DNA from: a phage
Reading direction: 5' to 3' (one strand)
NCBI GenBank assembly: GCA_024614665.1
Contig: GCA_024614665.1_4861.1
DNA length: 64,000 nucleotides
The translations under genes and the position numbers were made by a program. Positions 4,035-64,000 of the stretch are shown piece after piece; positions within the stretch are counted from its first letter, which is position 1; each line of letters starts with the position of its first letter. The notes below the pieces were generated by a model. That model had not been told where the DNA came from and searched no databases. It saw only the letters and a program-made list of their open reading frames with translations.

Positions 4035-4695
4035 AAAGACGAGCTTCGAGGTCGTCGATAATGGTATCTGTGAAATAGCTAATATCTAGCTGCTCCACGA
4101 AATCCCTGCGTTCCAGAATGCGCTCTGCGAAGAGCGTACCGTACCAACTAGGGACATTACTAACGCCGTTGCGTCCGAACTTCTGCTGGACATGACCAAC
4201 GGCATGGAATTTTGCATCACCTTTGCTTTTACCCTGTTCACGGGCAAACAGATAAGAACGGTGCATGTAATTGCTCACGTCATCTACAGACGGTATACCA
4301 CGGTCAGCTGCGGCAACTATCTCAGAGACAATCCCGTTGTAGTTCCCTTTGTGAGAACTGCGGTGTTCTAAGACTGCATGGGCAATCGTCAAACATTCAT
4401 CATCGGTAAGTTTATACTTACGTTTGAGCACTGGCTTGTTATCCAGTATCCAGCTATACCCTTTGATGTGGTGCGACGCACGGTCTTCTTTGGTAGAGAA
4501 GATGTCGTGAGCTGCCACCGCAATCAGTATCAGCTTCAGGTGTTCGGTTTGCCCAAGCATATACGCGATACGAATCGCATTTGATTTAACTGAGTTGATG
4601 TGATCCATGCGATGCGCACTATCGGTATAACGATAGAAGTCGCGGAATTGACGAACCAGTTTTTCCCAAAGTTTGTTGAGTTCAGTGCCCTGCAT
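4024..4695 (-). CDS. HD-domain phosphohydrolase
   Basis: 223 aa; H...HD metal-binding signature (HRMDH ... AVAAHDIF) typical of the HD superfamily. Confidence 0.55.
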   Translation of the reverse strand: MQGTELNKLWEKLVRQFRDFYRYTDSAHRMDHINSVKSNAIRIAYMLGQTEHLKLILIAVAAHDIFSTKEDRASHHIKGYSWILDNKPVLKRKYKLTDDECLTIAHAVLEHRSSHKGNYNGIVSEIVAAADRGIPSVDDVSNYMHRSYLFAREQGKSKGDAKFHAVGHVQQKFGRNGVSNVPSWYGTLFAERILERRDFVEQLDISYFTDTIIDDLEARLSHD

Positions 4696-5572: not shown

Positions 5573-5590
5573 TGTAAATACTCCTTCTGG

Positions 5591-5606
5591 GTAATAGTCG
5601 ATTAAA
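5591..5606 (-). promoter_or_regulatory. TTTAATCGACTATTACC element upstream of SD
   Basis: Minus-strand TTTAATCGACTATTACC CAGAAGGAG TATTTACA ATG. Confidence 0.45.
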
Positions 5607-5631
5607 GCGTTAACGTGTAACGCTCACCTAA

Positions 5632-5647
5632 GTAATATATATCTCAG
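5632..5647 (-). promoter_or_regulatory. AT-rich promoter-like element (TATATTAC type)
   Basis: Minus-strand CTGAGATATATATTACTTAGGTGAG, repeated near-identically at 63690-63706; contains TATATTAC, which I recall as the early-promoter consensus of phiKZ-like phages. Confidence 0.5.
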
Positions 5648-5664
5648 TTCTTTTTGAATGCAAT

Positions 5665-5709
5665 TAATAAAATAAAAAGGCTCACCCGTATCCGAAGATA
5701 GGATGAGCC
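5665..5709 (-). terminator. intrinsic terminator
   Basis: Hairpin GGCTCA.../...TGAGCC followed on the minus strand by TTTTTATTTTATT, just after the stop of gene 5719-6267. Confidence 0.55.
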
Positions 5710-5718
5710 TAGTGGAGC

Positions 5719-10725: not shown

Positions 10726-13700
10726 TTAGTTGATTTTAGCCGGCAAGGCTGGGACGTCTTCACCATCTAAGATGCGTCCGATGTTCTCCCCACCACGATA
10801 CCCGACAGCGTTGGTGGTTCCGATGCGCATGATAGAACCTACGATACGTGCGTCGACGGAATCACGACCAAAGATAATGTCGAGTTCCTGCCCGTCTTCC
10901 GTTTTGTTGGTTCCATACATCACTTCCTGAACCGTCGTTTTCAGCTGGTTAGCAATAACCATCTTATCCGCTGCTGCCATCTCTACCCGGTGTGTGATGT
11001 AGAATCGGACACACAGGCTATTGTACGCTAACGGCACCCCCTCAACACGAAAATCACCGTTGACTCGACCGTCCTTCGGCTCGTCACGTTTGAGAGCCAG
11101 CGCAGTCTTCCGACGTATACGGTCGTATTTACGAACCATCTCCGCCAAAGACGGGGTCATATCTTCCAACTCGCCGTGGTAAACCACTTCGATTTTGTCG
11201 ATAAACCCACGAACACCAGAGCGTGGTGCAAAGGAGCTTAACTCACGCAGCGTCTCCGCTGCTTCTTTACTGAACCCGCTCATATCGCCAGTCAGGTTGT
11301 CGGTGAAGGTGCATAGAATTGAATCCACGTCTACGTGGTCCCCTTCTTTTACCATCTCCAACAGGTTCTGGGTGAATGTCATTGTGACTTCTTTGAGTTT
11401 GGTAACATCGGCTTCGGCCTTAGCAGCGAACCGCTCACTAATGGCGTTGGAGTCCTCAATTACTTCTTCCCCTTCAATCAAAGCGACAGTTGCCAGTATC
11501 CCGTTTTTAAAACTGACCTGCGTTGGATCATAGATGTCTGGTTCAAAGTGTTGTTCGTTGTACGTGATAACGGCACCGGCAGGGAGTTTATCTCCGCGCT
11601 TCCATTTCGTTACCAGGGTGTGTGGGTAGTAAGTCCCTTCGTGCGGACCGAACCAACGACCCAGTGGGAAAGCTTCTTCCTCCCCGTCGTCGTATTTGAT
11701 TTTAACGTGGTCGTTAAGAACCTCCACAATCTTGCCAGGTTTATCGATTACGCGTGCGTGCTTCACAGAAGTACGGTGTGCCACGAACTTTTCTTGCTCG
11801 GTACGATACGGTGTGGTGGTTGCGCCAACACAACTGGTCGCAGAACCGAATTGAATCCCAACGAAGTTCTGACGCTTAGCATCGTCCATCAGGGTATCCG
11901 GCACCAAGCCATCAATAAACGACAGCGCCTCACCCGGCTTCAGTTTATCGAGGTCCTTTTTAAAGGTCGTGCCGTCCACGGTATCGTAGCGCGGGTTGTT
12001 TGTTGCAAAGGCGGTGATACCTACGTCGCCGTTATCGACCGTGTTACCGGAGACAATCCCCAGGTCGCTCGGTTGGAATTCACGGGTACTGTAGACCATG
12101 GTTTTGCGGTTACGACCGCCTGTACCGCCCATGGTAACGACATCCTTTTCTTTGATGTTCTGTACCGGGTTTGCGCCAGGTGCCAGCAAAACAGACGGGT
12201 CGGAGTTAATTGCACCCCACACCATGTCCTGTGTCAGCTCAAACTTACGATTCGAGTTAGGCGCGTTGTTGTAGTTACGCATCGCCCGCACCATCGCGGT
12301 GTAGATGTGATACGAAATACGTTGGTTCCCGATGAACATCATTTCGTCACCGTTAATTTCCGGTAACGTGTGGTCCGTCTGCAGCAGTTCGTTAGAACGC
12401 TCCAGTAAGCCGATAAAGGTTTCCGGCTCGCCCATTTTCCTGAGGATACGCGCGTGCATGTCGTCAACAAATGCGGTCCGCATCAGCTTCAGCTCTTTGA
12501 TGTAGCGTGGTGTTAGCCCATCTGCATCGCGTAACAGGTTCAGGTAAATGTCTTCCCGGTCAACTTCCGACTCGGTATACGTGGTAAAGTGTTTAATGTA
12601 ACGGTCTAAGCCGTTGACAATCATCCTCTGTTGATCGTTCTCGCAGACAATTGCAATTTTCGCATCCTGGAGACGAATAATGGAGTCGAACTGACCTTTA
12701 TCGATACGTTGTCCGACAGAGAGAACCTCGTAACTGATACCGAAGTGTTTCAACATCCCGGTTAATCCGAGATAGTACGCAAACACAAAGCCCAGCGAGA
12801 TTGATTTACCCATCAGTGACAATTCAGTCATTTCACGTGGAGCCTTAGCGGTGTCCACGCCAAAGACTTCGGCGAGTGTACCCAGTGGTTCGGTCTTATC
12901 CTTATCCACTCGATAGAGCTGGGAGTTTTTATCCATACCGACGATGACATGACTCCGCGGTTTCTTCGCCACAGGTACCAGCTCGACACGGTCCGCATCT
13001 GCCAGTTGCCCTTCGTTAAAGAATACCGCTTTCTGTTTAATGTCAAAGTTCCATTGGTACCCAATTGCGTTGAACGTTGCTACACGACGCGCTACTTCGG
13101 TATATTGGCGCGGCAGTTTAGACAGCGGATCGAACACATTCGCCAGTTTTGCATCAGTGATTTCGGTGTTCTTTGGATCGACTGCACGAGTAATAATCGC
13201 GTTAGTGAGCCAACGTCCGTAATCATTGACGACTTTATCGCTGCGACGGACAAAGTTCTTCCCGTAGGCAGTGGTTAACGCTACAGTATCGTGGGACACT
13301 TTACGGATAGGAACATCGACGCGCTGACGACGCATTGTATATTCCACACCATTTGCAACCCAAGTACCGTCTTCGGTTAATGCAGGAATTGAGAAACGTA
13401 CCGTGGTTGGTTCTCCGCCAATCGGCTGAATACGCAACGTGTGGTGTTCGATATTCCCGGTAACGGAAATCTCTTTCTCAACAGTGTGATTGTGAATCGC
13501 CAAACCGAGACGCTGAGATGACGCCACTGCACCCAGAACATCTTTCGGGAAGATTTCCTGGTTGTACTGACGAATGATTTGGTCGGTGGTATTTTCCGCC
13601 CAGGCTTCATCCGTAACTAAGCGTTCAATCTTCTTAGGCTCGGCTTTAACTTCGAGTTTCTTCGGATCAATGGTCAGACCTTCGCCGTACGTCTCTTTAG

Positions 13701-14931
13701 GATTGTACGGGTTGGGTAAGTTTACGAAACGTTTAGAAGATTCGTTCAGGAACTGATACGCTTTGGCGGTGACGCGGCCCGCTTCTGCCAGACGCTCAAC
13801 TTCCTGTTTAATCACAGCATCGTGTGGGATGGTGCGTTCTACGACGATGGTGGTTGGTTTGACATCTTCTTTCGGCGCTTCGATGACCAGATCTTCTTTC
13901 TCATCGAACTCATGATCGTTCAATGTGTCGTCGGCGTTGTCGCTTTGTGTTGCTTCATCGTCGACGATATCGAGGGTTTCTTCCGGTTTACTGGCAACGG
14001 TATCAACAGCATCGTCGTCCTCACCCAGATGTACGCGTTCGTCCCCTTCCGGTGTAACGAACTCGTCATCTTCGTAGTCGGTAGACGGCGGTGTGGTCAT
14101 CACAGTAGTCAGTGTACGGTAGAACATTCTGCCCATCTGCACGTCAGTCAAACGACCACCGGCAGACTTACGCATTCTTTCAATTACACCCATGTTCATG
14201 GATGTAAAACCACCGTTGTGCGTGAAGATAAAGTTCACACGTGACAGCTGGTTCATGTCCATACCGTCAAACAGGGTTGCTTGCTGATCGCCGTAAGCCC
14301 AACCGAACAGTTCCAGTAACCACAGGAGATTAAAGTCCTTAAAGCGCTCCAGTTTGGTTTTAACACGATCGTTATACGTCGTTTTAAAACGATCGAAAGA
14401 AGGCAGTACGTTACCCAGTTCGATGATGTAGTAGTTCTGACGCATGTACTCACGTGAGTCAGTTTTCATCTGGTTAGTTATCAGCAGCTGAATGTTGTGC
14501 AGACGTTCGTACCAGGACATCAGAGTATCAGGGTAGAAATAATGCGGCAGCATCGGGGTGTAGTTTTCGATGAGCAGCACTTTTGGATCGGAACGTACCA
14601 CGCCGTCTTCAATCATGCGACGAATACGACGGTTGTTACGATGGTACTGGAAGATTTGACGTTCTTGGCCAACAACCGGTTTCTTACGCGGATGGCCGAT
14701 AATGCCGTCTTCAGGCAGCTGGAAGTGGTGGCGAATCATCGCCGGTTTTTCCAGCTGGCCAAAACACGGTGTAGTTAACGGCGGCGCTAAAACCACCTGG
14801 TCTAAATCGATGGTGTGGTAGATAGAACCACGTGGGAGCTGGAGCTTCTCCAGCGGGATAATACGCGGGCGACCGAACTCATCGGTCTTGCGCACGGTAA
14901 AGCGCTGGTTAAACTGTTTCAGAAAAATCAT
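10726..14931 (-). CDS. large subunit of a phage multisubunit RNA polymerase (beta or beta'-like, divergent)
   Basis: 1401 aa directly downstream of, and co-oriented with, the beta'-like N-terminal subunit gene. Contains VDDMHAR and a later GDEMMF segment loosely resembling bacterial beta C-terminal motifs, plus a long acidic insertion. Assignment is mainly contextual. Confidence 0.45.
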   Translation of the reverse strand: MIFLKQFNQRFTVRKTDEFGRPRIIPLEKLQLPRGSIYHTIDLDQVVLAPPLTTPCFGQLEKPAMIRHHFQLPEDGIIGHPRKKPVVGQERQIFQYHRNNRRIRRMIEDGVVRSDPKVLLIENYTPMLPHYFYPDTLMSWYERLHNIQLLITNQMKTDSREYMRQNYYIIELGNVLPSFDRFKTTYNDRVKTKLERFKDFNLLWLLELFGWAYGDQQATLFDGMDMNQLSRVNFIFTHNGGFTSMNMGVIERMRKSAGGRLTDVQMGRMFYRTLTTVMTTPPSTDYEDDEFVTPEGDERVHLGEDDDAVDTVASKPEETLDIVDDEATQSDNADDTLNDHEFDEKEDLVIEAPKEDVKPTTIVVERTIPHDAVIKQEVERLAEAGRVTAKAYQFLNESSKRFVNLPNPYNPKETYGEGLTIDPKKLEVKAEPKKIERLVTDEAWAENTTDQIIRQYNQEIFPKDVLGAVASSQRLGLAIHNHTVEKEISVTGNIEHHTLRIQPIGGEPTTVRFSIPALTEDGTWVANGVEYTMRRQRVDVPIRKVSHDTVALTTAYGKNFVRRSDKVVNDYGRWLTNAIITRAVDPKNTEITDAKLANVFDPLSKLPRQYTEVARRVATFNAIGYQWNFDIKQKAVFFNEGQLADADRVELVPVAKKPRSHVIVGMDKNSQLYRVDKDKTEPLGTLAEVFGVDTAKAPREMTELSLMGKSISLGFVFAYYLGLTGMLKHFGISYEVLSVGQRIDKGQFDSIIRLQDAKIAIVCENDQQRMIVNGLDRYIKHFTTYTESEVDREDIYLNLLRDADGLTPRYIKELKLMRTAFVDDMHARILRKMGEPETFIGLLERSNELLQTDHTLPEINGDEMMFIGNQRISYHIYTAMVRAMRNYNNAPNSNRKFELTQDMVWGAINSDPSVLLAPGANPVQNIKEKDVVTMGGTGGRNRKTMVYSTREFQPSDLGIVSGNTVDNGDVGITAFATNNPRYDTVDGTTFKKDLDKLKPGEALSFIDGLVPDTLMDDAKRQNFVGIQFGSATSCVGATTTPYRTEQEKFVAHRTSVKHARVIDKPGKIVEVLNDHVKIKYDDGEEEAFPLGRWFGPHEGTYYPHTLVTKWKRGDKLPAGAVITYNEQHFEPDIYDPTQVSFKNGILATVALIEGEEVIEDSNAISERFAAKAEADVTKLKEVTMTFTQNLLEMVKEGDHVDVDSILCTFTDNLTGDMSGFSKEAAETLRELSSFAPRSGVRGFIDKIEVVYHGELEDMTPSLAEMVRKYDRIRRKTALALKRDEPKDGRVNGDFRVEGVPLAYNSLCVRFYITHRVEMAAADKMVIANQLKTTVQEVMYGTNKTEDGQELDIIFGRDSVDARIVGSIMRIGTTNAVGYRGGENIGRILDGEDVPALPAKIN

Positions 14932-14949: not shown

Positions 14950-16563
14950 TCATTTCAACAGCGCAGCAGTCGTTCTTTTAATCACGTTGTTAACCGGATT
15001 GATTTTGAAACTGCCGTCTGTTGCAAACCAGTAGTTTTTCGAACTGACCCACTTCCGATTTTCCTCGAGCGCTTCGGTTGACATCGGGCAGTTTGCTGAG
15101 CCGGTGTCACCATCGTAGTCACCACCCAATCCACCTAATCGGGATGGATGTGGTGCCATGGATTCCACAAAGGTTTTCACGGTACGGTCAGGGAAGCTAA
15201 TTGCACCCTTCTCTTTTAACGTGACCCAATCGTCTTCCAGTTCATGCAAATAGAGGGAAGAGGTGGTGGTCTCCAATCTTATGGTCGAGGAGTAAGTCGA
15301 ACCGCGTCCCGTAACCGGATAACGCGTGATGAACGAGAAGTAGTCATTCCAAATATCGTAACCTGACAAATAGAGGAGTTCTGCTAAGCTCAGTCCGCGG
15401 ACAAGCTTACGGTCACGTCCTTCCGGCAGGTCTTCAATATCGTAAAAGATTTTGAAGCTGCGTTTGTCCTGGTAGATTAATGCCACGTAATGGTCCGGAT
15501 CAATCATCAGCGGTTTATGTCGAAGCTCGCGCGCTTCCATTCTGTTGATGAGTGTTTCGATGCCATCGTCGGTAGTGAAAAGGTCATACACCCGCCCGGA
15601 GACTTCCAGGAACTCACGCTTGAGTGTTTTGGTGTTAACGCCGTATAAGTTGCCGTCCCCTGCCCGGATGTTACTGAGGTAACGTTCACGGATGTGGTAT
15701 TGAGCCACAGGCAGTAATGCCTTCAGGGTTTGGTACAAACCGATACGGGTATCCGTTGGACGAATCGCATCTTCGCGACCCATGACCTTGGAACCGGTTG
15801 AGAATGAAGACAGTACGTTACGCGTACCGTTCATTAACTTACGTGACGTCACTTTACGACGTGCAAAACCACCTTTACCGTCTTGGATGTTGAAAAAGTA
15901 CATCCAGATGTCATTAAAGGTTTGTTGGAGCTTCCAGCGAACCGGGTCAGTCAGTTCCGTTCGCGTACTGCGGTCGGGGATTGCACGTGCCAGAGAAATC
16001 AGACGGCGGTAGAGTCCGCCAATCTCTTCTTCTTGGTCGCGGCCATCCTGACGAATGACCAAATCACGTAATCCCGCAGGCAGAACCAGCACATAGCGGC
16101 TGAGACTGACCGGACGGAACTTATTGAAGAAATCGACTGTCTCGTCGCGACGCATTGATTCGTTGCGTCCTGGCGTCAGTTGTTCGTAGTAGCGTAGGAA
16201 GAAGTTGAAGCCGGTGTCTGCACCTTTATCACTGGGCAGAGCCGGCTCGAAATCTTTTTCTTTCTCATTCCAGATAGCGAATCGCTTCCCGGAACAGATT
16301 TCTTCGTACAGCTGTTTCAGCTGGAACAGTGCCAAACAAACGGTCGGCGAAATGATATCCAGTTTGATATCAATGTACGAGAACGTTGAGTCTCGTGCCT
16401 CGCTCCCTGTGAGGCCAAATATTTCAGTTGAATACAGTCCTTCAGGGTGAAAGTTTTTCGTCAGTCCCTGAAAGGTGTCTGTTGTTGTAACTGGTTTTAA
16501 ATGCGACACCAGGGACTTGTTGACGTTTAACAGGTAAAAGTCAACCCAGTTTAGCTTTCTCAC
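14950..16563 (-). CDS. multisubunit RNA polymerase beta'-like subunit, N-terminal fragment type
   Basis: 537 aa. YVLVLPAGLRDLVIRQDG...LYRRLI parallels the bacterial beta' segment LPVLPPDLRPLVPLDGGRF...LYRRVI; MAPHPSRLGG followed by DYDGD parallels NRAPTLHRLG ... NADFDGD (catalytic Mg-binding aspartates). GTG start with AGGAG SD. Confidence 0.6.
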   Translation of the reverse strand: MRKLNWVDFYLLNVNKSLVSHLKPVTTTDTFQGLTKNFHPEGLYSTEIFGLTGSEARDSTFSYIDIKLDIISPTVCLALFQLKQLYEEICSGKRFAIWNEKEKDFEPALPSDKGADTGFNFFLRYYEQLTPGRNESMRRDETVDFFNKFRPVSLSRYVLVLPAGLRDLVIRQDGRDQEEEIGGLYRRLISLARAIPDRSTRTELTDPVRWKLQQTFNDIWMYFFNIQDGKGGFARRKVTSRKLMNGTRNVLSSFSTGSKVMGREDAIRPTDTRIGLYQTLKALLPVAQYHIRERYLSNIRAGDGNLYGVNTKTLKREFLEVSGRVYDLFTTDDGIETLINRMEARELRHKPLMIDPDHYVALIYQDKRSFKIFYDIEDLPEGRDRKLVRGLSLAELLYLSGYDIWNDYFSFITRYPVTGRGSTYSSTIRLETTTSSLYLHELEDDWVTLKEKGAISFPDRTVKTFVESMAPHPSRLGGLGGDYDGDTGSANCPMSTEALEENRKWVSSKNYWFATDGSFKINPVNNVIKRTTAALLK

Positions 16564-37302: not shown

Positions 37303-37323
37303 GATAGATAATATCTGTCTGAG
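37303..37323 (-). promoter_or_regulatory. AT-rich promoter-like element in divergent intergenic region
   Basis: Minus-strand CTCAGACAGATATTATCTATCCGAG between divergent genes 36741-37271 and 37348-37818. Confidence 0.4.
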
Positions 37324-41381: not shown

Positions 41382-42137
41382 ATGAATGTTAATCCACTTG
41401 CAGCGTTGTCGGGCTTTGTTGCCAAAGCATCCACGATTCTGCCTAAAGCCTTTAGCGGCTCTCAACAGGAACTCGCGCTGACCACCTATGACGACATGTC
41501 TGATGTGTCCAAGTGGATGCAGCAAGAGAAGTTTTTAAACTTTACCGGAATGCTTGTACCCGTACCTCCGGGCTTCAACACGTATGTGATGGACCACATA
41601 GAACGGTTGGAATCTGTATGGGCTGTGCTCCAGAAGATTCAGGAAGGGGTTTTAACACCCATCGATAAACGTTTCGGTGCGATGACCCATGACCTGGGCA
41701 TGTTAACTCTGCCGATTGGGTTTAAGTTCAAAGACCTGAACTACCCGCTGAAAAATATCAATCCAAAAGATCTGGTTGAGAAACTGGCGAAGTCGTATAC
41801 CAACAACGTCATTGACCAGCGTCCGATTGAAAAGACCTACCACAGCGCAGGCGAGATCGATGTTGCATTTAATCGTGCCAAAGCGCTGAACCTGGAAGTG
41901 ACTAAGAAACTTCAGAAAAGTATTGACCGTACAGTTGAAAGCATCAATGTCTCTGTGGATATTATCTCTAATTCACAAGTCCATCCTAATGTGGCGGCAG
42001 AGTTAGTGAAAATGGCTGACATGGGTGCTGACTGGGTTGAGCTGTTCGGACTTTTTATGAAACAGATTAACGAACTGACAGAATGTCTGAACGTAACTGG
42101 TGATCGCCTCAAGACCCTGAAAGCAAACAAAAAATAA
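41382..42137 (+). CDS. hypothetical protein
   Basis: 251-aa ORF followed by a strong terminator. Confidence 0.55.
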   Translation: MNVNPLAALSGFVAKASTILPKAFSGSQQELALTTYDDMSDVSKWMQQEKFLNFTGMLVPVPPGFNTYVMDHIERLESVWAVLQKIQEGVLTPIDKRFGAMTHDLGMLTLPIGFKFKDLNYPLKNINPKDLVEKLAKSYTNNVIDQRPIEKTYHSAGEIDVAFNRAKALNLEVTKKLQKSIDRTVESINVSVDIISNSQVHPNVAAELVKMADMGADWVELFGLFMKQINELTECLNVTGDRLKTLKANKK

Positions 42138-42146
42138 AACGTGATA

Positions 42147-42188
42147 CCTCCCACCTACCGTAACTGGTAGGTGGGAGGGTTTTATTTT
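42147..42188. terminator. bidirectional intrinsic terminator
   Basis: Long stem CCTCCCACCTACC / GGTAGGTGGGAGG then GTTTTATTTT; A-rich run on the other side. Confidence 0.7.
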
Positions 42189-43110
42189 AAACGGTAAGGA
42201 AACCACGAACGAGCGTTGGTGGAATCCATCTTACGACTTTCTGGCGTACGCCATCGCGCGGACCTTTCCAGAAAGTGTGCCAATGTGCACGCCGCATATG
42301 TGCTTTACGACCACCTTCTCTTAATCCGCTCGTGGTTGTTCCGTACTGATTGAGATAGCGTTCCTGTTCGTTTATGGTTGAAATAACAATTGGCTTAGAT
42401 CGTGGCTGGACATGATAATCCGGCATCGTTTTTCTTTTCTTCCTTTTTGGGTATACCGTAGGTTCGGGATAACGCGGGATGAGAGAACAGGTAAAGAGCA
42501 TTGCAGTGACTAGCCGATGGGGTGCCTCTGTCCATTCATCGAACACCCCACTAAGTTTAACAAAGCCGTTCCCCACATCTACGATTTCTGCGGCATCAAC
42601 CTGTACACAATCGACCGCGTTACGAAAAATACTTAGAATCAAACAGTCTTTTCCTTGAATCCACCGCCTGGAGATATAATAAACCAATTCCAGTTTTTCA
42701 CCAGTCTGCTGTATGATCTCTAGGGGGAATTCTACGGTCCATCCTGGGATTTTATCAAACCAGTCACGCGGCAATTCATCGAGAAGATCGGAGCCTATCA
42801 TCTGTTCAAACACAAAAGAGTCACCGATAAGTAACACACCACCATAACGGTAACCGTGTGCGATAGTGGCGTAAAGATTTTGAACTTCAAGGTTTTTCGG
42901 AGTAGACGATAAGAAATATTCCGGTGGAATGAACCGCTGACCTATGCACCCCTCGTGCTCAGACGCATATTTCTCAACCAAGTTGATGCCCCTGGAACGT
43001 TCATTTGCTTTACTCAACATGACAAGGAAATCACCATCGGTTTTCACTCTATCAGCATCAATACCCAGCAATTTTAATGCTACTTTATCACTTTCACTAA
43101 TGTTAAACAT
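42187..43110 (-). CDS. hypothetical protein with basic C-terminal region
   Basis: 307-aa ORF. Confidence 0.5.
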   Translation of the reverse strand: MFNISESDKVALKLLGIDADRVKTDGDFLVMLSKANERSRGINLVEKYASEHEGCIGQRFIPPEYFLSSTPKNLEVQNLYATIAHGYRYGGVLLIGDSFVFEQMIGSDLLDELPRDWFDKIPGWTVEFPLEIIQQTGEKLELVYYISRRWIQGKDCLILSIFRNAVDCVQVDAAEIVDVGNGFVKLSGVFDEWTEAPHRLVTAMLFTCSLIPRYPEPTVYPKRKKRKTMPDYHVQPRSKPIVISTINEQERYLNQYGTTTSGLREGGRKAHMRRAHWHTFWKGPRDGVRQKVVRWIPPTLVRGFLTV

Positions 43111-43126
43111 TTTAATACACCTTACG

Positions 43127-43144
43127 TAAATAGTCGATTAAAAA
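43127..43144 (-). promoter_or_regulatory. TTTTTAATCGACTATTTAC element upstream of SD
   Basis: Minus-strand order: terminator, TTTTTAATCGACTATTTAC, GTAAGGTG SD, ATG. Confidence 0.45.
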
Positions 43145-43175
43145 ATAAAACTGCGGACACCCCGAAGAGTGTCCG
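43141..43175 (-). terminator. intrinsic terminator
   Basis: Hairpin CGGACAC TCTTCGGG GTGTCCG followed on the minus strand by CAGTTTTATTTTT. Confidence 0.6.
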
Positions 43176-43180
43176 TTTAA

Positions 43181-43723
43181 TTAGAAGTTGCCAATAGCGA
43201 TAGGCTGCATTGGCTCGACCACAATCAGTATTTCTTTCAGACGCGAAACGATATGCTCCCAGACTTGTGCTTCGAGGTGACGTAACATGGTGGTGAACTC
43301 GCCCATGTACATCTCTTTAAACTCGTCGCGATTGAGATGTTCCCACGCTTCTTTCAATGGGCCTGCTTCTGGACCAGACATCTTGATCATCATTTCGATG
43401 TCTTTCATCTCATCAAACGCCTTGCCGACTTTATCAATAACCTCGTCGGTCTTGAGTTCGAGTGAGAAACGACCCATCTTAGACTGCAGGAAGCCATCTT
43501 CAATATCTTCGTCGTTGTATTCGAAACACGCAATACGTTGCGCGAGTTGATGAACTTCATTTACCGCGATGTTGACGTACGCCGCAGAAATAAGTCCAGC
43601 GAGGTGCTGACGATCGATATTCTTTGGTATCAGATAGTCTTCACACTTACGCTTAAACTCGAACAACGCCGCTGGAAATATTTCACGAAATTCGTCATCG
43701 AGTAAATCAATGAATATTTTCAT
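43181..43723 (-). CDS. hypothetical protein (paralog pair with 43720-44259?)
   Basis: 180-aa ORF; similar N-terminus and shared DKVG segment with the neighbouring gene. Confidence 0.5.
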   Translation of the reverse strand: MKIFIDLLDDEFREIFPAALFEFKRKCEDYLIPKNIDRQHLAGLISAAYVNIAVNEVHQLAQRIACFEYNDEDIEDGFLQSKMGRFSLELKTDEVIDKVGKAFDEMKDIEMMIKMSGPEAGPLKEAWEHLNRDEFKEMYMGEFTTMLRHLEAQVWEHIVSRLKEILIVVEPMQPIAIGNF

Positions 43724-45840: not shown

Positions 45841-45859
45841 TAGATAATATCTATCTCAG
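45841..45859 (-). promoter_or_regulatory. AT-rich promoter-like element
   Basis: Minus-strand CTGAGATAGATATTATCTACAGG overlapping the stop of the upstream gene, about 35 nt before ATG 45807. Confidence 0.4.
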
Positions 45860-60584: not shown

Positions 60585-61211
60585 TTATTGCGGAATAAAC
60601 TTACGGTGTCCGAGTGATTCCCAAAAACTATCGGTGCGCTCTTTGGTTAATTCATACCACGCACGCCCGGCATCAGAATCGACAACCTTTAACGTTTCAG
60701 TAAGCAGGAATTTGAACAGTTCAGCGCTACGACCGGGTGCTACACCGTCGAGATATATCGGAATTAAATAACCGGTTTTGATTTCTTCGTACGGTTGCGA
60801 TTGGTGCTGACCAACAACCCAGGCGTCAGCCGCGCTACCGACCAAAGTGGTGTTTACAGTTAACTCATCAGAAATCCAGTTAACGGTATCAGCCATTATT
60901 GAATCGCCATTGACGTAGAAGAAAACTAAACGTTTAGGTTGCTCCACCGAACCGGCCAAATCTAATGCAGTAGTTCCGGTGAAGATCGTATTATTGGGAT
61001 TACGTTCTGCAATAGGTAGAGCAAACCACGCTTCGAGCTGTTCCCAGCTACGCGGCAGTGCTTCTTTAAACCACTTCACCAATCGCGGGTATTCCAGAAA
61101 CCCTTCTACCTCTTCTTCCATCAGATTGATACGCAGTTTGGTATCCTGACGATTCGCTTTCTGACATGTCACCATGTCATCGATGAAACGAATCAGGGTA
61201 ATTTCGTTCAT
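60585..61211 (-). CDS. hypothetical protein
   Basis: 208-aa ORF; no Mre11/SbcD phosphoesterase motifs. Confidence 0.5.
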   Translation of the reverse strand: MNEITLIRFIDDMVTCQKANRQDTKLRINLMEEEVEGFLEYPRLVKWFKEALPRSWEQLEAWFALPIAERNPNNTIFTGTTALDLAGSVEQPKRLVFFYVNGDSIMADTVNWISDELTVNTTLVGSAADAWVVGQHQSQPYEEIKTGYLIPIYLDGVAPGRSAELFKFLLTETLKVVDSDAGRAWYELTKERTDSFWESLGHRKFIPQ

Positions 61212-61265
61212 GTTTAATCCTTCTTCAACAAAAAAAGAAGGTAGCCCGTAGGCTACCTCTCGTAT

Positions 61266-61766
61266 TTACAGCCCCATATGCATAAGGGAAATGATAGGGA
61301 CTTTTCGGCCACGTATCATTGCATACGGTTCGTACATTTGTGCGTTAGTTTCGAATAACTCACAGGCCGGAATACGATCGCCGGTAGAGAGTTGTAAGAC
61401 TTCGATTTGGTCGCCCCAGAAGTTATTCACTAATACGTGGTCGACAGTGTTGTCTTCACGACCTTCAGGGGTTTTGCAATAAGTGGCGGCATCGTACCAA
61501 CCTTTGCGGTATACTTCATAACCCGCGTGAAGCATCCGGTAGTACGGACGCAGTTGTGGGGCATTCAACGCAGCATCTAGCCACTCGCTGTGAATGCTGT
61601 TAATCAACACGGTCGCTTCTTCTGGCCACTCGCTGCGGTTTAGGGTTAACTCGCCTAACAGCTTTAACTTCCAGCCAGTGGAAAGAATAGCGCGGGTACG
61701 TTCTGGATTGACGTTCATCTGAGTAAAGAAAGTAGAACGAGTATCGTCAAGAATGTTCATGTTCAT
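61266..61766 (-). CDS. hypothetical protein
   Basis: Start placed at ATG 61766 (MNMNILDD) with TAAGGA SD; the longer ORF-track start would run through the regulatory element and terminator. Confidence 0.5.
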   Translation of the reverse strand: MNMNILDDTRSTFFTQMNVNPERTRAILSTGWKLKLLGELTLNRSEWPEEATVLINSIHSEWLDAALNAPQLRPYYRMLHAGYEVYRKGWYDAATYCKTPEGREDNTVDHVLVNNFWGDQIEVLQLSTGDRIPACELFETNAQMYEPYAMIRGRKVPIISLMHMGL

Positions 61767-61782
61767 TTGCTTAGTCCTTACG

Positions 61783-61802
61783 AGTAATAGTCGATTAAAA
61801 AG
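61783..61802 (-). promoter_or_regulatory. TTTTTAATCGACTATTACTC element upstream of SD
   Basis: Minus-strand order: terminator T-run, TTTTTAATCGACTATTACTC, GTAAGGA SD, ATG. Confidence 0.45.
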
Positions 61803-61804
61803 GA

Positions 61805-61866
61805 CCCTGCGGCTATGTGTTGGGGATATCACCGCAGGGCCAAAGTGAGATGGGTCGTCATCTCAC
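61805..61866 (-). terminator. tandem hairpins, putative terminator
   Basis: Hairpin GTGAGATG/CATCTCAC (61845-61866) and hairpin CCCTGCGG/CCGCAGGG with a large loop (61805-61839) followed on the minus strand by TCCTTTTTAAT. Confidence 0.4.
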
Positions 61867-61883
61867 GTTATAACATCTGTCTG
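61867..61883 (-). promoter_or_regulatory. AT-rich promoter-like element (weaker variant)
   Basis: Minus-strand CAGACAGATGTTATAAC just after the stop of gene 61896-62279; resembles the element at 37303-37323. Confidence 0.3.
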
Positions 61884-61895
61884 AAAACTTTTCGG

Positions 61896-62279
61896 TTACT
61901 GGTCGAGCGCTACTGAACCACGCACCACTCCTTGCTGTTCAATAACCAGGAGGCGTTGTTTGGTTTTCGTATTGTAAGCGAGCGACGCGCGAAGCGTCGG
62001 GTCGCACGTTATTGTCTCTACTGGCACAATCTCTTGTGCCTTTGAGTTCAACAAAAAGTAGTAACCTGCCGGACAAGTTTCCTCGCCCTTTGCGTGGACC
62101 AGGATGTACTCGTCGTGCCGGCTGACTTCTTCACATCTACCATCATCCCCAGTACAGACTTCGAACGAAGGCGGGTTGTACTGATACGGTGTGCCTGGTA
62201 GTAAATCTTCTACGCTAGTTGTAGCTGAAGCAGAAGCGGTAAAGAACACCGCCACGATAATACCCATAAATCCACGCAT
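61896..62279 (-). CDS. secreted protein (signal peptide)
   Basis: 127 aa; N-terminal MRGFMGIIVAVFFTASASA signal-like segment; AAGGAA SD. Confidence 0.5.
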   Translation of the reverse strand: MRGFMGIIVAVFFTASASATTSVEDLLPGTPYQYNPPSFEVCTGDDGRCEEVSRHDEYILVHAKGEETCPAGYYFLLNSKAQEIVPVETITCDPTLRASLAYNTKTKQRLLVIEQQGVVRGSVALDQ

Positions 62280-62292
62280 GTTGTTTCCTTAC

Positions 62293-62703
62293 TTAAAAGT
62301 CGAGTTTATTGATGCCTACGTTTTTCTTAATCGTAGGGTCATACATGATAACCGTCAGGGCATTATCACCTGGGTCGCGAGTAAACTCAGCAACGGCTTC
62401 ACCACTGCAGGCCTGGTTATCATTATAGTTCATGGTTTCGGCTTGCCCGGTTGCCATGTTAATAACCCCGTATTCCGGGTCGCCACATGCGACGCCGCCC
62501 ATCGTTTTCACTAACAGGTAACGGTTGTTATCGGACATCGCAACGATCTGGCAGCTACCGCCTTGTACGTCAGAGTTCTGGCACCAGAACTGGCCGCCGT
62601 ATTCGTGATCGTTAACAACTTTTGGTAACTCGATACTTCCAGCACGAGCGAAGAAGCTAATGGCCAGAGTAGCAAGTAAAACTGGTAATAAAAAATGTTT
62701 CAT
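62293..62703 (-). CDS. secreted protein (signal peptide)
   Basis: 136 aa; N-terminal MKHFLLPVLLATLAISFFARA signal; GAGGTG SD. Confidence 0.5.
   Translation of the reverse strand: MKHFLLPVLLATLAISFFARAGSIELPKVVNDHEYGGQFWCQNSDVQGGSCQIVAMSDNNRYLLVKTMGGVACGDPEYGVINMATGQAETMNYNDNQACSGEAVAEFTRDPGDNALTVIMYDPTIKKNVGINKLDF
62296..62308 (-). promoter_or_regulatory. variant of the TTAATCGACTAT upstream element
   Basis: Minus-strand AAACTCGACTTTT AAGTAAGGAAACAAC ATG. Confidence 0.3.
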
Positions 62704-62725
62704 AATAGCACCTCAATTTTTTGAG

Positions 62726-63217
62726 TTATTCTGAATAGTCGATTGTTTTGATAGTTTCCATACCGTAGTACATAGCGATGGAGGCCAGAGTTTTGGTATC
62801 CGGTCGCTGTACAAAACCGGCCCTGAAATCTTTGCTGCAAATTTTCTCCACTGATAGTTCATCACGATTAGGGATAAGCCATAACGCGTCACCGTTGTGA
62901 CGGTCGACTGCACCCCACCAACCACCTGGGCAATCTTTATCGCCCGGACGGTGTACGATAGCGACACGTCCGTTGAAGGATATGTCAACTACACGACACT
63001 GTTTCTTAAGCAGCTTACGCGCATTGCACCAGAACGGCTTATCATTAAGATTGATGGTGCGGGTATATGCTGGAATGCTGCCGTTAATACTGCCCTGGAA
63101 CCCGCTGAATTCGTCAGCGCGTGCCTTAGAAATCCGTAGCCCAACAACAAGTGCCATCAACAGCACAGTAAAAAGCACCACTTTGGCCAAGTGGCGATTA
63201 ACGTTATTGCATTTCAT
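62726..63217 (-). CDS. secreted protein (signal peptide)
   Basis: Start placed at ATG 63217 (MKCNNVNRHLAKVVLFTVLLMALVVGLRISKARA) with GGAG SD. Confidence 0.5.
   Translation of the reverse strand: MKCNNVNRHLAKVVLFTVLLMALVVGLRISKARADEFSGFQGSINGSIPAYTRTINLNDKPFWCNARKLLKKQCRVVDISFNGRVAIVHRPGDKDCPGGWWGAVDRHNGDALWLIPNRDELSVEKICSKDFRAGFVQRPDTKTLASIAMYYGMETIKTIDYSE
62733..62745 (-). promoter_or_regulatory. AATCGACTATTC element
   Basis: Minus-strand CAATCGACTATTCAGAATAA overlapping the last codons of the upstream gene, about 35 nt before ATG 62703. Confidence 0.4.
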
Positions 63218-63605
63218 TTTTAATATCTCCACGATTAAGGGTGATGCGACCGACGAGCACATCGTTGTGATAAAAACTCACAGCAACCAGATCTGGCAAT
63301 TCCAACGGCGATACACTGACCGAGGTGACTTTTGGTTGATTGCACGATATGTCGATTAATCGCTGATACATTTTCAATTTCTTATCAGCGATAACCAGCC
63401 CTGTGCAGTTCTTACCGTCCGTCAGTCTGTAGATTTGTAACTGTTCGACCTCACGCATCAGTTCCGGTTTTTCATTCGGTGCAATGGCATAATCCGAATC
63501 AGCTGATGTGTATTCAGTCACGTCTGGCTTATCGAAAGCATAAGTTGCTGCAATACCACATGCGGCCAGAACTACTACTGCTTGTAAGAACTTCTTGATA
63601 GTCAT
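63204..63605 (-). CDS. lipoprotein
   Basis: 133 aa; signal peptide with lipobox VLAACG. Confidence 0.5.
   Translation of the reverse strand: MTIKKFLQAVVVLAACGIAATYAFDKPDVTEYTSADSDYAIAPNEKPELMREVEQLQIYRLTDGKNCTGLVIADKKLKMYQRLIDISCNQPKVTSVSVSPLELPDLVAVSFYHNDVLVGRITLNRGDIKNEMQ
63227..63240 (-). promoter_or_regulatory. variant of the TTAATCGACTAT upstream element
   Basis: Minus-strand CCTTAATCGTGGAGATATTAAAA ATG. Confidence 0.3.
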
Positions 63606-63614
63606 GTTTTGCTC

Positions 63615-63627
63615 TATAGTCGATTGG
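63615..63627 (-). promoter_or_regulatory. AATCGACTATAG element
   Basis: Minus-strand order: terminator, AACCAATCGACTATAGAGCAAAAC, ATG. Confidence 0.4.
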
Positions 63628-63630
63628 TTT

Positions 63631-63659
63631 AAAAAAGAATAGGCTACCCGAGGGTAGCC
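63631..63659 (-). terminator. intrinsic terminator
   Basis: Hairpin GGCTACCC TC GGGTAGCC followed on the minus strand by TATTCTTTTTT. Confidence 0.6.
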
Positions 63660-63689
63660 AGTTGAGTTAATCTCTTAACTCTCACCTAG

Positions 63690-63706
63690 GTAATATATAT
63701 CTGAGA
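63690..63706 (-). promoter_or_regulatory. AT-rich promoter-like element (TATATTAC type)
   Basis: Minus-strand CTCAGATATATATTACCTAGGTGAG, near-identical to the element at 5632-5647. Confidence 0.5.
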
Positions 63707-63710
63707 TATT

Positions 63711-63971
63711 TTACAATGTGAAGGTTGTGTTAAGAATACGAAAACCCAATGCTCGCTTAGCGATTTGCATATTTGCAGGCGTGAAGTCCACCAGTTTGAT
63801 TTGAACGATCGATAAATCGTAAAGCTTGTGAAGCACTTCGATTTTGTGCCGCCAATCTGTTTTTTGGTGCAGCTCTATCGTCGTTGGTATCTCGCCTAGT
63901 CTCGGCAACTGTGCCCCAAGTAAACGATGATGGACTTTACCGTTTATAGTTGGGGTACCTTCCGTAACCAT
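63711..63971 (-). CDS. hypothetical protein
   Basis: 86-aa ORF close to the window edge; upstream region not fully visible. Confidence 0.4.
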   Translation of the reverse strand: MVTEGTPTINGKVHHRLLGAQLPRLGEIPTTIELHQKTDWRHKIEVLHKLYDLSIVQIKLVDFTPANMQIAKRALGFRILNTTFTL

Positions 63972-64000
63972 CAGTCGTGCATCGATGTAGTTATTTCGCT

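Follow-up and report, generated by a model that had tools for sequence, protein, structure and literature searches.

An early-promoter-like element, a 5′ hairpin and a closely following terminator ahead of gp086 in an SPN3US-like giant phage

What becomes of a transcript whose promoter is followed almost at once by a terminator, and how is the gene behind that terminator expressed? This question is raised by the end of a 64,000-nt stretch of phage DNA (contig GCA_024614665.1_4861.1; hereafter the window, meaning the whole stretch), where the minus strand reads, in this order, a promoter-like element, a hairpin, a strong terminator, a short box and the ATG of the next gene. A preliminary description made from the letters alone had noticed this order, and all of its elements were found where it had placed them. 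It had suggested either a roughly 50-nt RNA ending at the terminator or a phage polymerase that reads through host-type terminators, and it had raised the idea of a stabilizing structure at the 5′ end of the RNA; as a whole, this interpretation is partly supported by the analysis reported here. PhiKZ-type giant phages carry out transcription by themselves, and mapped start sites are available for few of them. What is gained is a testable set of early promoters with predicted starts for the SPN3US clade of Salmonella and Erwinia phages. Should these elements be confirmed, the promoter with its hairpin and terminator could be put to use as small expression parts that do not depend on the host, and the attenuated locus could reveal how the phage limits the expression of early membrane proteins.

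A predicted promoter of the virion RNA polymerase

At positions 61000-64000, the window shares 96-97% identity with the Salmonella phage SPN3US and with approximately 40 relatives; its minus strand corresponds to the SPN3US plus strand, and window position 63605 to SPN3US position 165783. SPN3US is a giant phage of the phiKZ type (240 kb), and its record annotates several split genes for beta-type subunits of RNA polymerase, as befits multisubunit enzymes; the beta-type genes gp025 and gp026 are represented in the window by the ORFs 10726-14931 and 14950-16563. In phages of this type, a polymerase carried in the virion transcribes early genes and a second phage polymerase transcribes later genes (PMC7598289). 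No transcript map for the SPN3US clade was found in the literature searched.

The promoter-like element, TGTAAAATATCTCAGATATATATTACCTAGGT (...TCTCAGATATATATTACCTAGGT), lies at 63715-63684 on the minus strand and is predicted to be an early promoter of the virion RNA polymerase, belonging to a strong class 1; its core TATATTAC occupies 63697-63690, and its upstream edge is overlapped by the TAA stop codon (63713-63711, minus strand) of the upstream gene, a homologue of SPN3US gp087. It matches the strongest early-promoter motif of this phage, ATATATTACYTAGGTGAG, at 18 of 18 positions. When up to three mismatches were allowed, the motif occurred twice in the window, each time exactly and on the minus strand, against an expectation of 0.04. 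A position-weight-matrix scan for promoters, run over the whole SPN3US genome as assembled from its record, yielded nine strong sites, termed class 1 (TTTCAGATATATATTACYTAGGTG), and eight variants, termed class 2 (AGATAGATATTATCTnnnnG), and the 63.7-kb promoter, with a score of 49, falls within the range of the nine best. All 17 sites are located on the coding (plus) strand ahead of genes, and the element recurs across that genome in front of operons made up of small genes. One more class-2-like site is found upstream of the RNA polymerase subunit gene gp232. A partly palindromic variant of the early promoter, AGATAGATATTATCT, which in SPN3US precedes gp232, occurs on the minus strand of the window at 45842-45856, 37306-37320 and 4077-4091; it lacks a hairpin at +1 and usually lacks the box.

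Consensus sequences of early promoters have been reported for phiKZ (TATATTAC), 201phi2-1 (TTTRARR_BTATATTACDWHDGTG) and N1M2 (TTTCARRYAKATATTATYWAAGTGWA), that of OBP being nearly identical to the last (PMC7058600). The 63.7-kb element, TCTCAGATATATATTACCTAGGTG, fits all of these consensus sequences, and its full motif, core and T-rich upstream part included, matches those of 201phi2-1, OBP and N1M2. In AR9, early promoters follow the scheme AAATATATATTAT-(6N)-G+1, and a conserved start 6 nt downstream of the consensus is also known in phiKZ and phiR1-37 (PMC5312081). All early-promoter sites in the first 50 kb of phiKZ read TATATTAC-N5-T-G, and the sequence at 63.7 kb, TATATTAC-CTAGGT-G63683, agrees both with these sites and with the AR9 rule. 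Because the core-(6N)-G+1 rule was mapped in AR9, phiKZ and phiR1-37, the start is predicted, by analogy with these relatives, at G63683 (minus strand), 6 nt past the core, and the element at 63715-63684 is predicted to be the counterpart of the virion-RNA-polymerase promoters of phiKZ, 201phi2-1 and AR9.

Judged by its sequence, the 63.7-kb promoter is a member of the known phiKZ-like early-promoter family, and the terminator behind it is an ordinary one. With the early promoters of phiKZ, 201phi2-1, OBP, AR9 and phiR1-37 it shares an AT-rich core (TATATTAC or TATATTAT) near -10, a T-rich or TTTCAG-type upstream element, a G, here the predicted start, 6 nt past the core, and the occurrence of many coding-strand copies before operons of small genes to which no function is assigned. 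The promoters of the SPN3US clade differ in that the conserved sequence extends to ...CYTAGGTG and that a hairpin begins behind it at +1 to +3, a feature missing from the sites in the first 50 kb of phiKZ.

The promoter-like element of the preliminary description is hence borne out, as a predicted early promoter of the phage virion polymerase and not as a host-type one. A scan for promoters of the host sigma-70 type gave no excess (11 sites found vs 13 expected). TTAGGTGA and CGACTATAG bear a resemblance to the promoters of SP6 and T7, respectively. The SP6-like reading was set aside because the phiKZ-type consensus accounts for TTAGGTGA, and both readings because the annotated RNA polymerase genes in the SPN3US record are all of the multisubunit beta type. 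A full-text literature search for the motif strings returned unrelated primer sequences only. Pattern searches for these promoters also meet a trap, since many small viral contigs of marine origin (L010-L129), unrelated to SPN3US-like phages, conserve TATATATTACGTAGGTG as in-frame coding sequence (...FEDIYYVGEVK...).

The 5′ hairpin, the terminator and the box

Directly behind the predicted start, a stem-loop with a 7-bp stem and a GAGA loop (GAGTTAA-GAGA-TTAACTC; 63681-63664, minus strand) would occupy positions +3 to +20 of the transcript, which, given the inferred start, leaves it flush with the 5′ end of the RNA, i.e., within about 2 nt of it. The same feature recurs at sister promoters: in seven of the nine class-1 sites of SPN3US, a perfect hairpin of 6-9 bp has its first base at +1 to +3 and its last at +18 to +21. 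When fold energies were compared with those of 5000 random 26-mers, class-1 sites stood out (p = 7e-5) and class-2 sites did not (p = 0.7). Two scans of viral contigs (IMG/VR, the second with a different pattern) provided 47 distinct promoter instances, mostly from contigs of 220-246 kb. At least seven contiguous pairs beginning at +1 to +3 were present in 51% of these instances vs 4.4% of 20,000 control windows taken from the same loci, and at least eight in 36% vs 1.7%.

The stem sequences vary from site to site (GAGATTAC/GTAATCTC, GAGCATTGA/TCAATGCTT, GATTAGT/ACTAATC, GAATGAC/GTTATTC), i.e., in the 5′ hairpins of class 1 the structure is kept and the sequence is not. Stems are extended by G-U pairs in 31 of the 47 instances and by their antisense-strand equivalent in 15 of the 47, and this excess on the sense strand suggests that it is the sense RNA that folds. 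Comparison of the orthologous locus among SPN3US, SPAsTU, pEa_SNUABM_29, Huxley and two metagenomic relatives showed invariant stems of the 5′ hairpin and variable loops, the sole stem change being one from A-U to G-U. No consistent hairpin at +1 accompanies the early promoters that lie within the first 50 kb of phiKZ, so the idea of a general phiKZ-type trait was dropped; the flush 5′ hairpin is a trait of the SPN3US clade, and its inconsistency in phiKZ implies that it is not required for polymerases of the phiKZ type in general. Descriptions of the class-1 hairpin at +1 were not found in the papers searched, within the limits of that library.

In Escherichia coli, mRNAs are protected by stem-loops at the 5′ end, as both RppH and RNase E require this end to be single-stranded (PMC3997798). 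By analogy, the 5′ hairpin most plausibly shields early transcripts from decay by RppH and RNase E, and the earlier idea of a 5′ stability structure fits the position in which the hairpins begin under the inferred start, +3 in this case and +1 to +3 at sister promoters. Compared with the stabilizing stem-loops of E. coli ompA and papA, the hairpins of the SPN3US clade are shorter and AU-rich.

The terminator is a stem-loop with a 7-bp stem (GGCTACC-CTCG-GGTAGCC; 63659-63642, minus strand) and a tail TATTCTTTTTT (UAUUCUUUUUU) at 63641-63631. Five of its seven pairs are G-C, it has a tetraloop and a U tract, and it is oriented along the minus strand only; the structure is that of a canonical intrinsic terminator, and the stem-loop was also picked up by a scan for terminators. 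It begins 24 nt past the predicted start, and an RNA of 51-53 nt, from 63683 to about 63633-63631, is accordingly predicted. The 53 nt of 63683-63631 fold into two hairpins (-21.2 kcal/mol, z = -4.6), and none of 200 shuffled sequences folded as well. The terminator is kept in SPN3US, SPAsTU and pEa_SNUABM_29, which represent three diverged Seoulvirus lineages, among which it has changed between CUCG and UUCG in the loop and from one A-U to a G-U pair. At the orthologous place in Huxley and two metagenomic relatives, the GC hairpin of the terminator is absent. In Huxley (L009, 1530-1590), L044 and L189, the promoter and the 5′ hairpin are kept and the GC terminator hairpin is missing; Huxley retains the T-rich tract alone, as if the 18 nt of the hairpin had been gained or lost in one piece. 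A terminator-like site at 63196-63176 was set aside, as it is located inside the coding region of gp085. An Rfam search of 61000-64000 with E values up to 1 gave only a chance match to a snoRNA.

Terminators of this kind stop the polymerases of related giant phages, as reported for AR9 (PMC5312081) and for 201phi2-1, in which they account for 52 of 132 mapped ends. Moreover, 11 short RNAs have been described in 201phi2-1, eight of them arising by premature termination in 5′ leaders, and in the same phage terminators are located immediately behind the promoters of two capsid genes (PMC11512511). Of the two suggestions in the preliminary description, the RNA of roughly 50 nt is matched by the predicted 51-53 nt and has a precedent in 201phi2-1 (PMC11512511), whereas a phage polymerase that generally reads through host-type terminators is unsupported in that form, since the polymerases of AR9 and 201phi2-1 stop there.

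Between the terminator and the gene, the box AATCGACTAT is found at 63625-63616 (minus strand), 10 nt ahead of the start codon. Its consensus AATCGACYAT has seven exact copies in the window, all on the minus strand, against an expectation of 0.31, and in SPN3US the box, including one-mismatch forms, precedes approximately 14 small genes in clusters of the early type. It is located downstream of seven of the nine class-1 promoters (at +23 to +32 in five of these seven) and of one of the eight class-2 promoters, but it also stands alone at gene junctions within SPN3US operons. From its end to the ATG the distance is mostly 18-21 nt (range 10-31 nt), and it is predicted to be single-stranded, near the ribosome-binding site. 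Among the structural, replication and RNA polymerase genes inspected, none has the box upstream. The terminator and the gp086 homologue of SPAsTU and pEa29 are separated by an extra gene of 79 aa, and in these phages the box (AATCGACCAT, AATCGACAAT) is again found 10 nt before the gp086 homologue, which indicates that the TCGACTAT box travels with the gene and not with the promoter-terminator unit. The box may be an RNA leader element, as an alternative to a small promoter for the second phage polymerase. A match to the late motif of AR9, AACA-(6N)-TA/G, was rejected because spacing and bases were inconsistent across sites. No description of a gene-proximal box was found in the paper library searched.

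Several further copies of the box have unusual settings. Exact copies of AATCGACTAT also occur within coding sequence on the minus strand, one at 6393-6384, 116 nt before the next start codon, and another at 62744-62735, in the last codons of gp085 and 31 nt ahead of the gp084 ATG. An ORF of 307 aa (42187-43110, minus strand), absent from SPN3US, is contained in a self-contained cassette (42130-43200) that consists of a terminator, a AATCGACTAT box (43139-43130), a Shine-Dalgarno sequence, the ORF and a strong bidirectional terminator; at the same position SPN3US has only one bidirectional terminator, and a different one.

Fate of the transcripts

Genes closely preceded by a terminator are common in this phage. 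In SPN3US, at least 15 plus-strand terminators are situated 0-45 nt ahead of the next start codon on the same strand, including those before the genes of endolysin, a helicase and gp081, and in a crude census of that genome 33 of 37 non-coding terminators had no recognizable promoter behind them. Since a conventional promoter would not fit between these at least 15 terminators and the genes directly behind them, the phage must routinely rely on read-through, on antitermination or on promoters of very small size. Examples of such gene-proximal terminators are seen at SPN3US 135393, 33360 and 168129 and at 61259-61238 and 60574-60555 of the window. In SPAsTU and pEa29, no other recognizable promoter was found between the terminator and the next gene. 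Partial read-through of the 63.6-kb terminator is likely.

The reading that we prefer, to which we assign a probability of roughly 0.55, combines an early promoter, a 5′ hairpin and an attenuating terminator with read-through into gp086-gp083. The multisubunit RNA polymerase injected with the virion would start at G63683, and the first 20 nt of the RNA would fold into a stem-loop flush with the 5′ end that shields it from RppH and RNase E. The polymerase would reach, 24 nt past the start, an intrinsic terminator at which the upstream gp087 operon ends as well. Some of the transcripts would stop there and yield the 51-53-nt RNA with two hairpins as a by-product, and the remaining transcripts would read through into gp086, gp085, gp084 and gp083. 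The terminator would thereby act as an attenuator and, together with a weak ribosome-binding site, would hold down the expression of one lipoprotein and one membrane protein. Against this reading stand the lack of a consistent +1 hairpin at phiKZ early promoters and of the GC hairpin at the orthologous place in Huxley; the order of promoter and then terminator is also rare and could be an evolutionary accident, being present at one or two of approximately 19 promoter-like sites, while the full order of promoter, terminator and box appears once in the census and again at a degenerate site at 61.8 kb.

If the box were itself a promoter, read-through would be unnecessary for the expression of gp086. 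Under such an account, which we consider possible but unlikely, the box serves the second, non-virion polymerase, the early promoter makes nothing but the terminated short RNA, gp086 is transcribed with a 10-nt leader, and genes that have both elements are expressed in the early phase and again afterwards. Early promoters in tandem with later ones are indeed known in phiKZ (PHIKZ054) and AR9 (PMC5312081), and the box is a 10-nt element that is strictly strand-specific and far more frequent in the window than expected. It directly follows the T tract of a terminator at three places (43139, 61796 and 63625), the 307-aa cassette has nothing in front of its gene except a terminator, the box and a Shine-Dalgarno sequence, and the copy at 6393-6384, in a coding region and far from a start codon, suits a promoter better than a leader element; nor does the box ever end closer than 10 nt to an ATG, the usual distance being that given above. 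However, its absence before the structural, replication and RNA polymerase genes inspected would leave such a polymerase only the approximately 14 small genes to serve, it is unlike the late (TATG) and middle motifs of phiKZ and the late motif of AR9, and it is often found at gene junctions within operons that have no upstream terminator. Its frequent position at +23 to +32 behind class-1 promoters fits an RNA leader element too. A related thought, quite unlikely in our estimate, is that the flush hairpin and the AATCGACYAT box together form a clade-specific tag on immediate-early messages that is read by the machinery of the phage or the host; such a tag may serve for transcription that resists the many terminators of the early region, for preferential translation, for destruction at a set time by a phage nuclease or for the release of messages from the early infection compartment, and it would then be more than a stabilizing structure.

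The remaining accounts concern the hairpin, the short RNA and the origin of the arrangement. The hairpin could bring about antitermination in cis, as put does in HK022 and nut in lambda, such that transcripts from the early promoter pass the terminator and those derived from upstream stop. Lambda and HK022 likewise have an RNA hairpin close to the promoter and a terminator behind it, the region is rich in terminators directly before genes, and antitermination was suspected by the authors of the 201phi2-1 study. Nevertheless, we hold it to be highly unlikely: stems and loops differ among promoters, which makes a sequence-specific signal improbable, transcripts of the upstream operon also carry the hairpin, so that no discrimination would result unless its 5′-terminal position matters, and hairpins are general, whereas a terminator behind the hairpin is found at the 63.6-kb locus only. 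That the RNA of about 53 nt is a trans-acting, base-pairing small RNA and the very purpose of the promoter-terminator pair has, in our view, a very slim chance. Its layout (5′ hairpin, linker, terminator hairpin and U tail) is typical of small RNAs, those reported in 201phi2-1 and phiKZ arise by premature termination (PMC11512511), and the promoter-hairpin-terminator unit is about 84% identical in SPAsTU and pEa29 despite the different adjacent gene. However, the candidate seeds vary between relatives (GAGA/GCAA/GCCA in loop 1, AACU/ACGUC/UAGUC in the linker and CUCG/UUCG in loop 2), it is the stems and not the single-stranded parts that are conserved, the terminator hairpin is missing in Huxley and the two metagenomic relatives, and Rfam offers no match. 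The slightest chance of all is given to an element order without regulatory meaning, in which a terminator hairpin was inserted here, or lost elsewhere, through PeSL-like shuffling of promoter and leader cassettes. Such swaps are mediated by PeSL cassettes in T4-type phages, the genes behind the promoter-hairpin unit do differ (the extra 79-aa gene of SPAsTU and pEa29, an unrelated 154-aa gene in Huxley), two metagenomic relatives have no terminator, and the window contains a box-led cassette that is absent from SPN3US. Yet the pairing of the terminator is preserved across three diverged Seoulvirus lineages, the PeSL layout is different, with its stem-loop upstream of a sigma-70-type promoter, and shuffling would explain the origin of the arrangement and not the fate of the transcripts.

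Related systems, downstream genes and comparison sites

A terminator directly behind a promoter has already been documented in 201phi2-1 and phiKZ. The short 5′-UTR RNAs of these two phages, detected by ONT-cappable-seq, resemble the present case in that transcription starts and ends almost immediately upstream of a coding gene, in a giant phage with polymerases of its own. In RNAs of the 201phi2-1 type the start and termination sites are less than 250 nt apart, a distance that the predicted 51-53 nt would fit. The known RNAs were measured, whereas the 63.6-kb RNA is predicted from sequence, and the conserved small RNA reported there precedes a tail gene, whereas the RNA considered here precedes an early gene. 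In lambda, a promoter closely precedes a terminator at pR′-tR′ as well, and the short 6S RNA is made unless the polymerase is modified. The nut sites of lambda and put sites of HK022 have the same sequence or structure at every site, but the class-1 hairpins differ between sites. Like the PeSL units of T4-type phages, the present elements are repeated units of terminator, promoter and Shine-Dalgarno sequence that flank variable small early genes, as in the order seen at 5710-5570. The layout is nevertheless another one, in that the recurring hairpin is transcribed and located downstream of the start and the promoter is of the phage-polymerase type; the PeSL stem-loop is upstream of its promoter, whereas the 63.6-kb terminator is downstream. 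As the PeSL stem-loop stands upstream of a sigma-70-type promoter, the analogy was retained only in part. The flush 5′ hairpin of class-1 early transcripts and the gene-proximal box appear undescribed in the literature searched.

The gene behind the box, a gp086 homologue of 133 aa (63204-63605, minus strand; ATG at 63605-63603), has a weak Shine-Dalgarno sequence (AGAG) and a signal peptide with the lipobox LAAC, the lipoprotein signal reading MTIKKFLQAVVVLAAC. The SPAsTU homologue, with 71% identity, has no lipobox cysteine. At its end gp086 overlaps the beginning of the gene behind it, a homologue of gp085 whose N terminus carries a membrane anchor (62726-63217, minus strand). From their sequences, both gp086 and gp085 may be envelope proteins made early in infection, perhaps with a part in superinfection exclusion. 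No Pfam family was found for gp086, gp085, gp082, gp017 or the 307-aa ORF.

Two other places in the window had been singled out in the preliminary description, a similar order at 61805-61883 and a terminator-first order at 5590-5710, and both arrangements are indeed present. The former (61886-61764, minus strand) has the same order as at 63.7 kb and comprises a degenerate promoter TTTCAGACAGATGTTATAACGT (61886-61865), a hairpin (61864-61847), a terminator (61841-61803) with a T run (61802-61797), the box (61796-61787) and the ATG (61766-61764). Its fold is stable (-28.9 kcal/mol, z = -5.4); the activity of its promoter is doubtful because the score in the SPN3US weight-matrix scan is below 12. 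The latter (5710-5570, minus strand) begins with a terminator (5710-5678) and its T tract (5677-5668), which are followed by a class-1 promoter (5657-5626) with a predicted start at G5625, a hairpin (5625-5605), the box (5603-5594) and the ATG (5572-5570).
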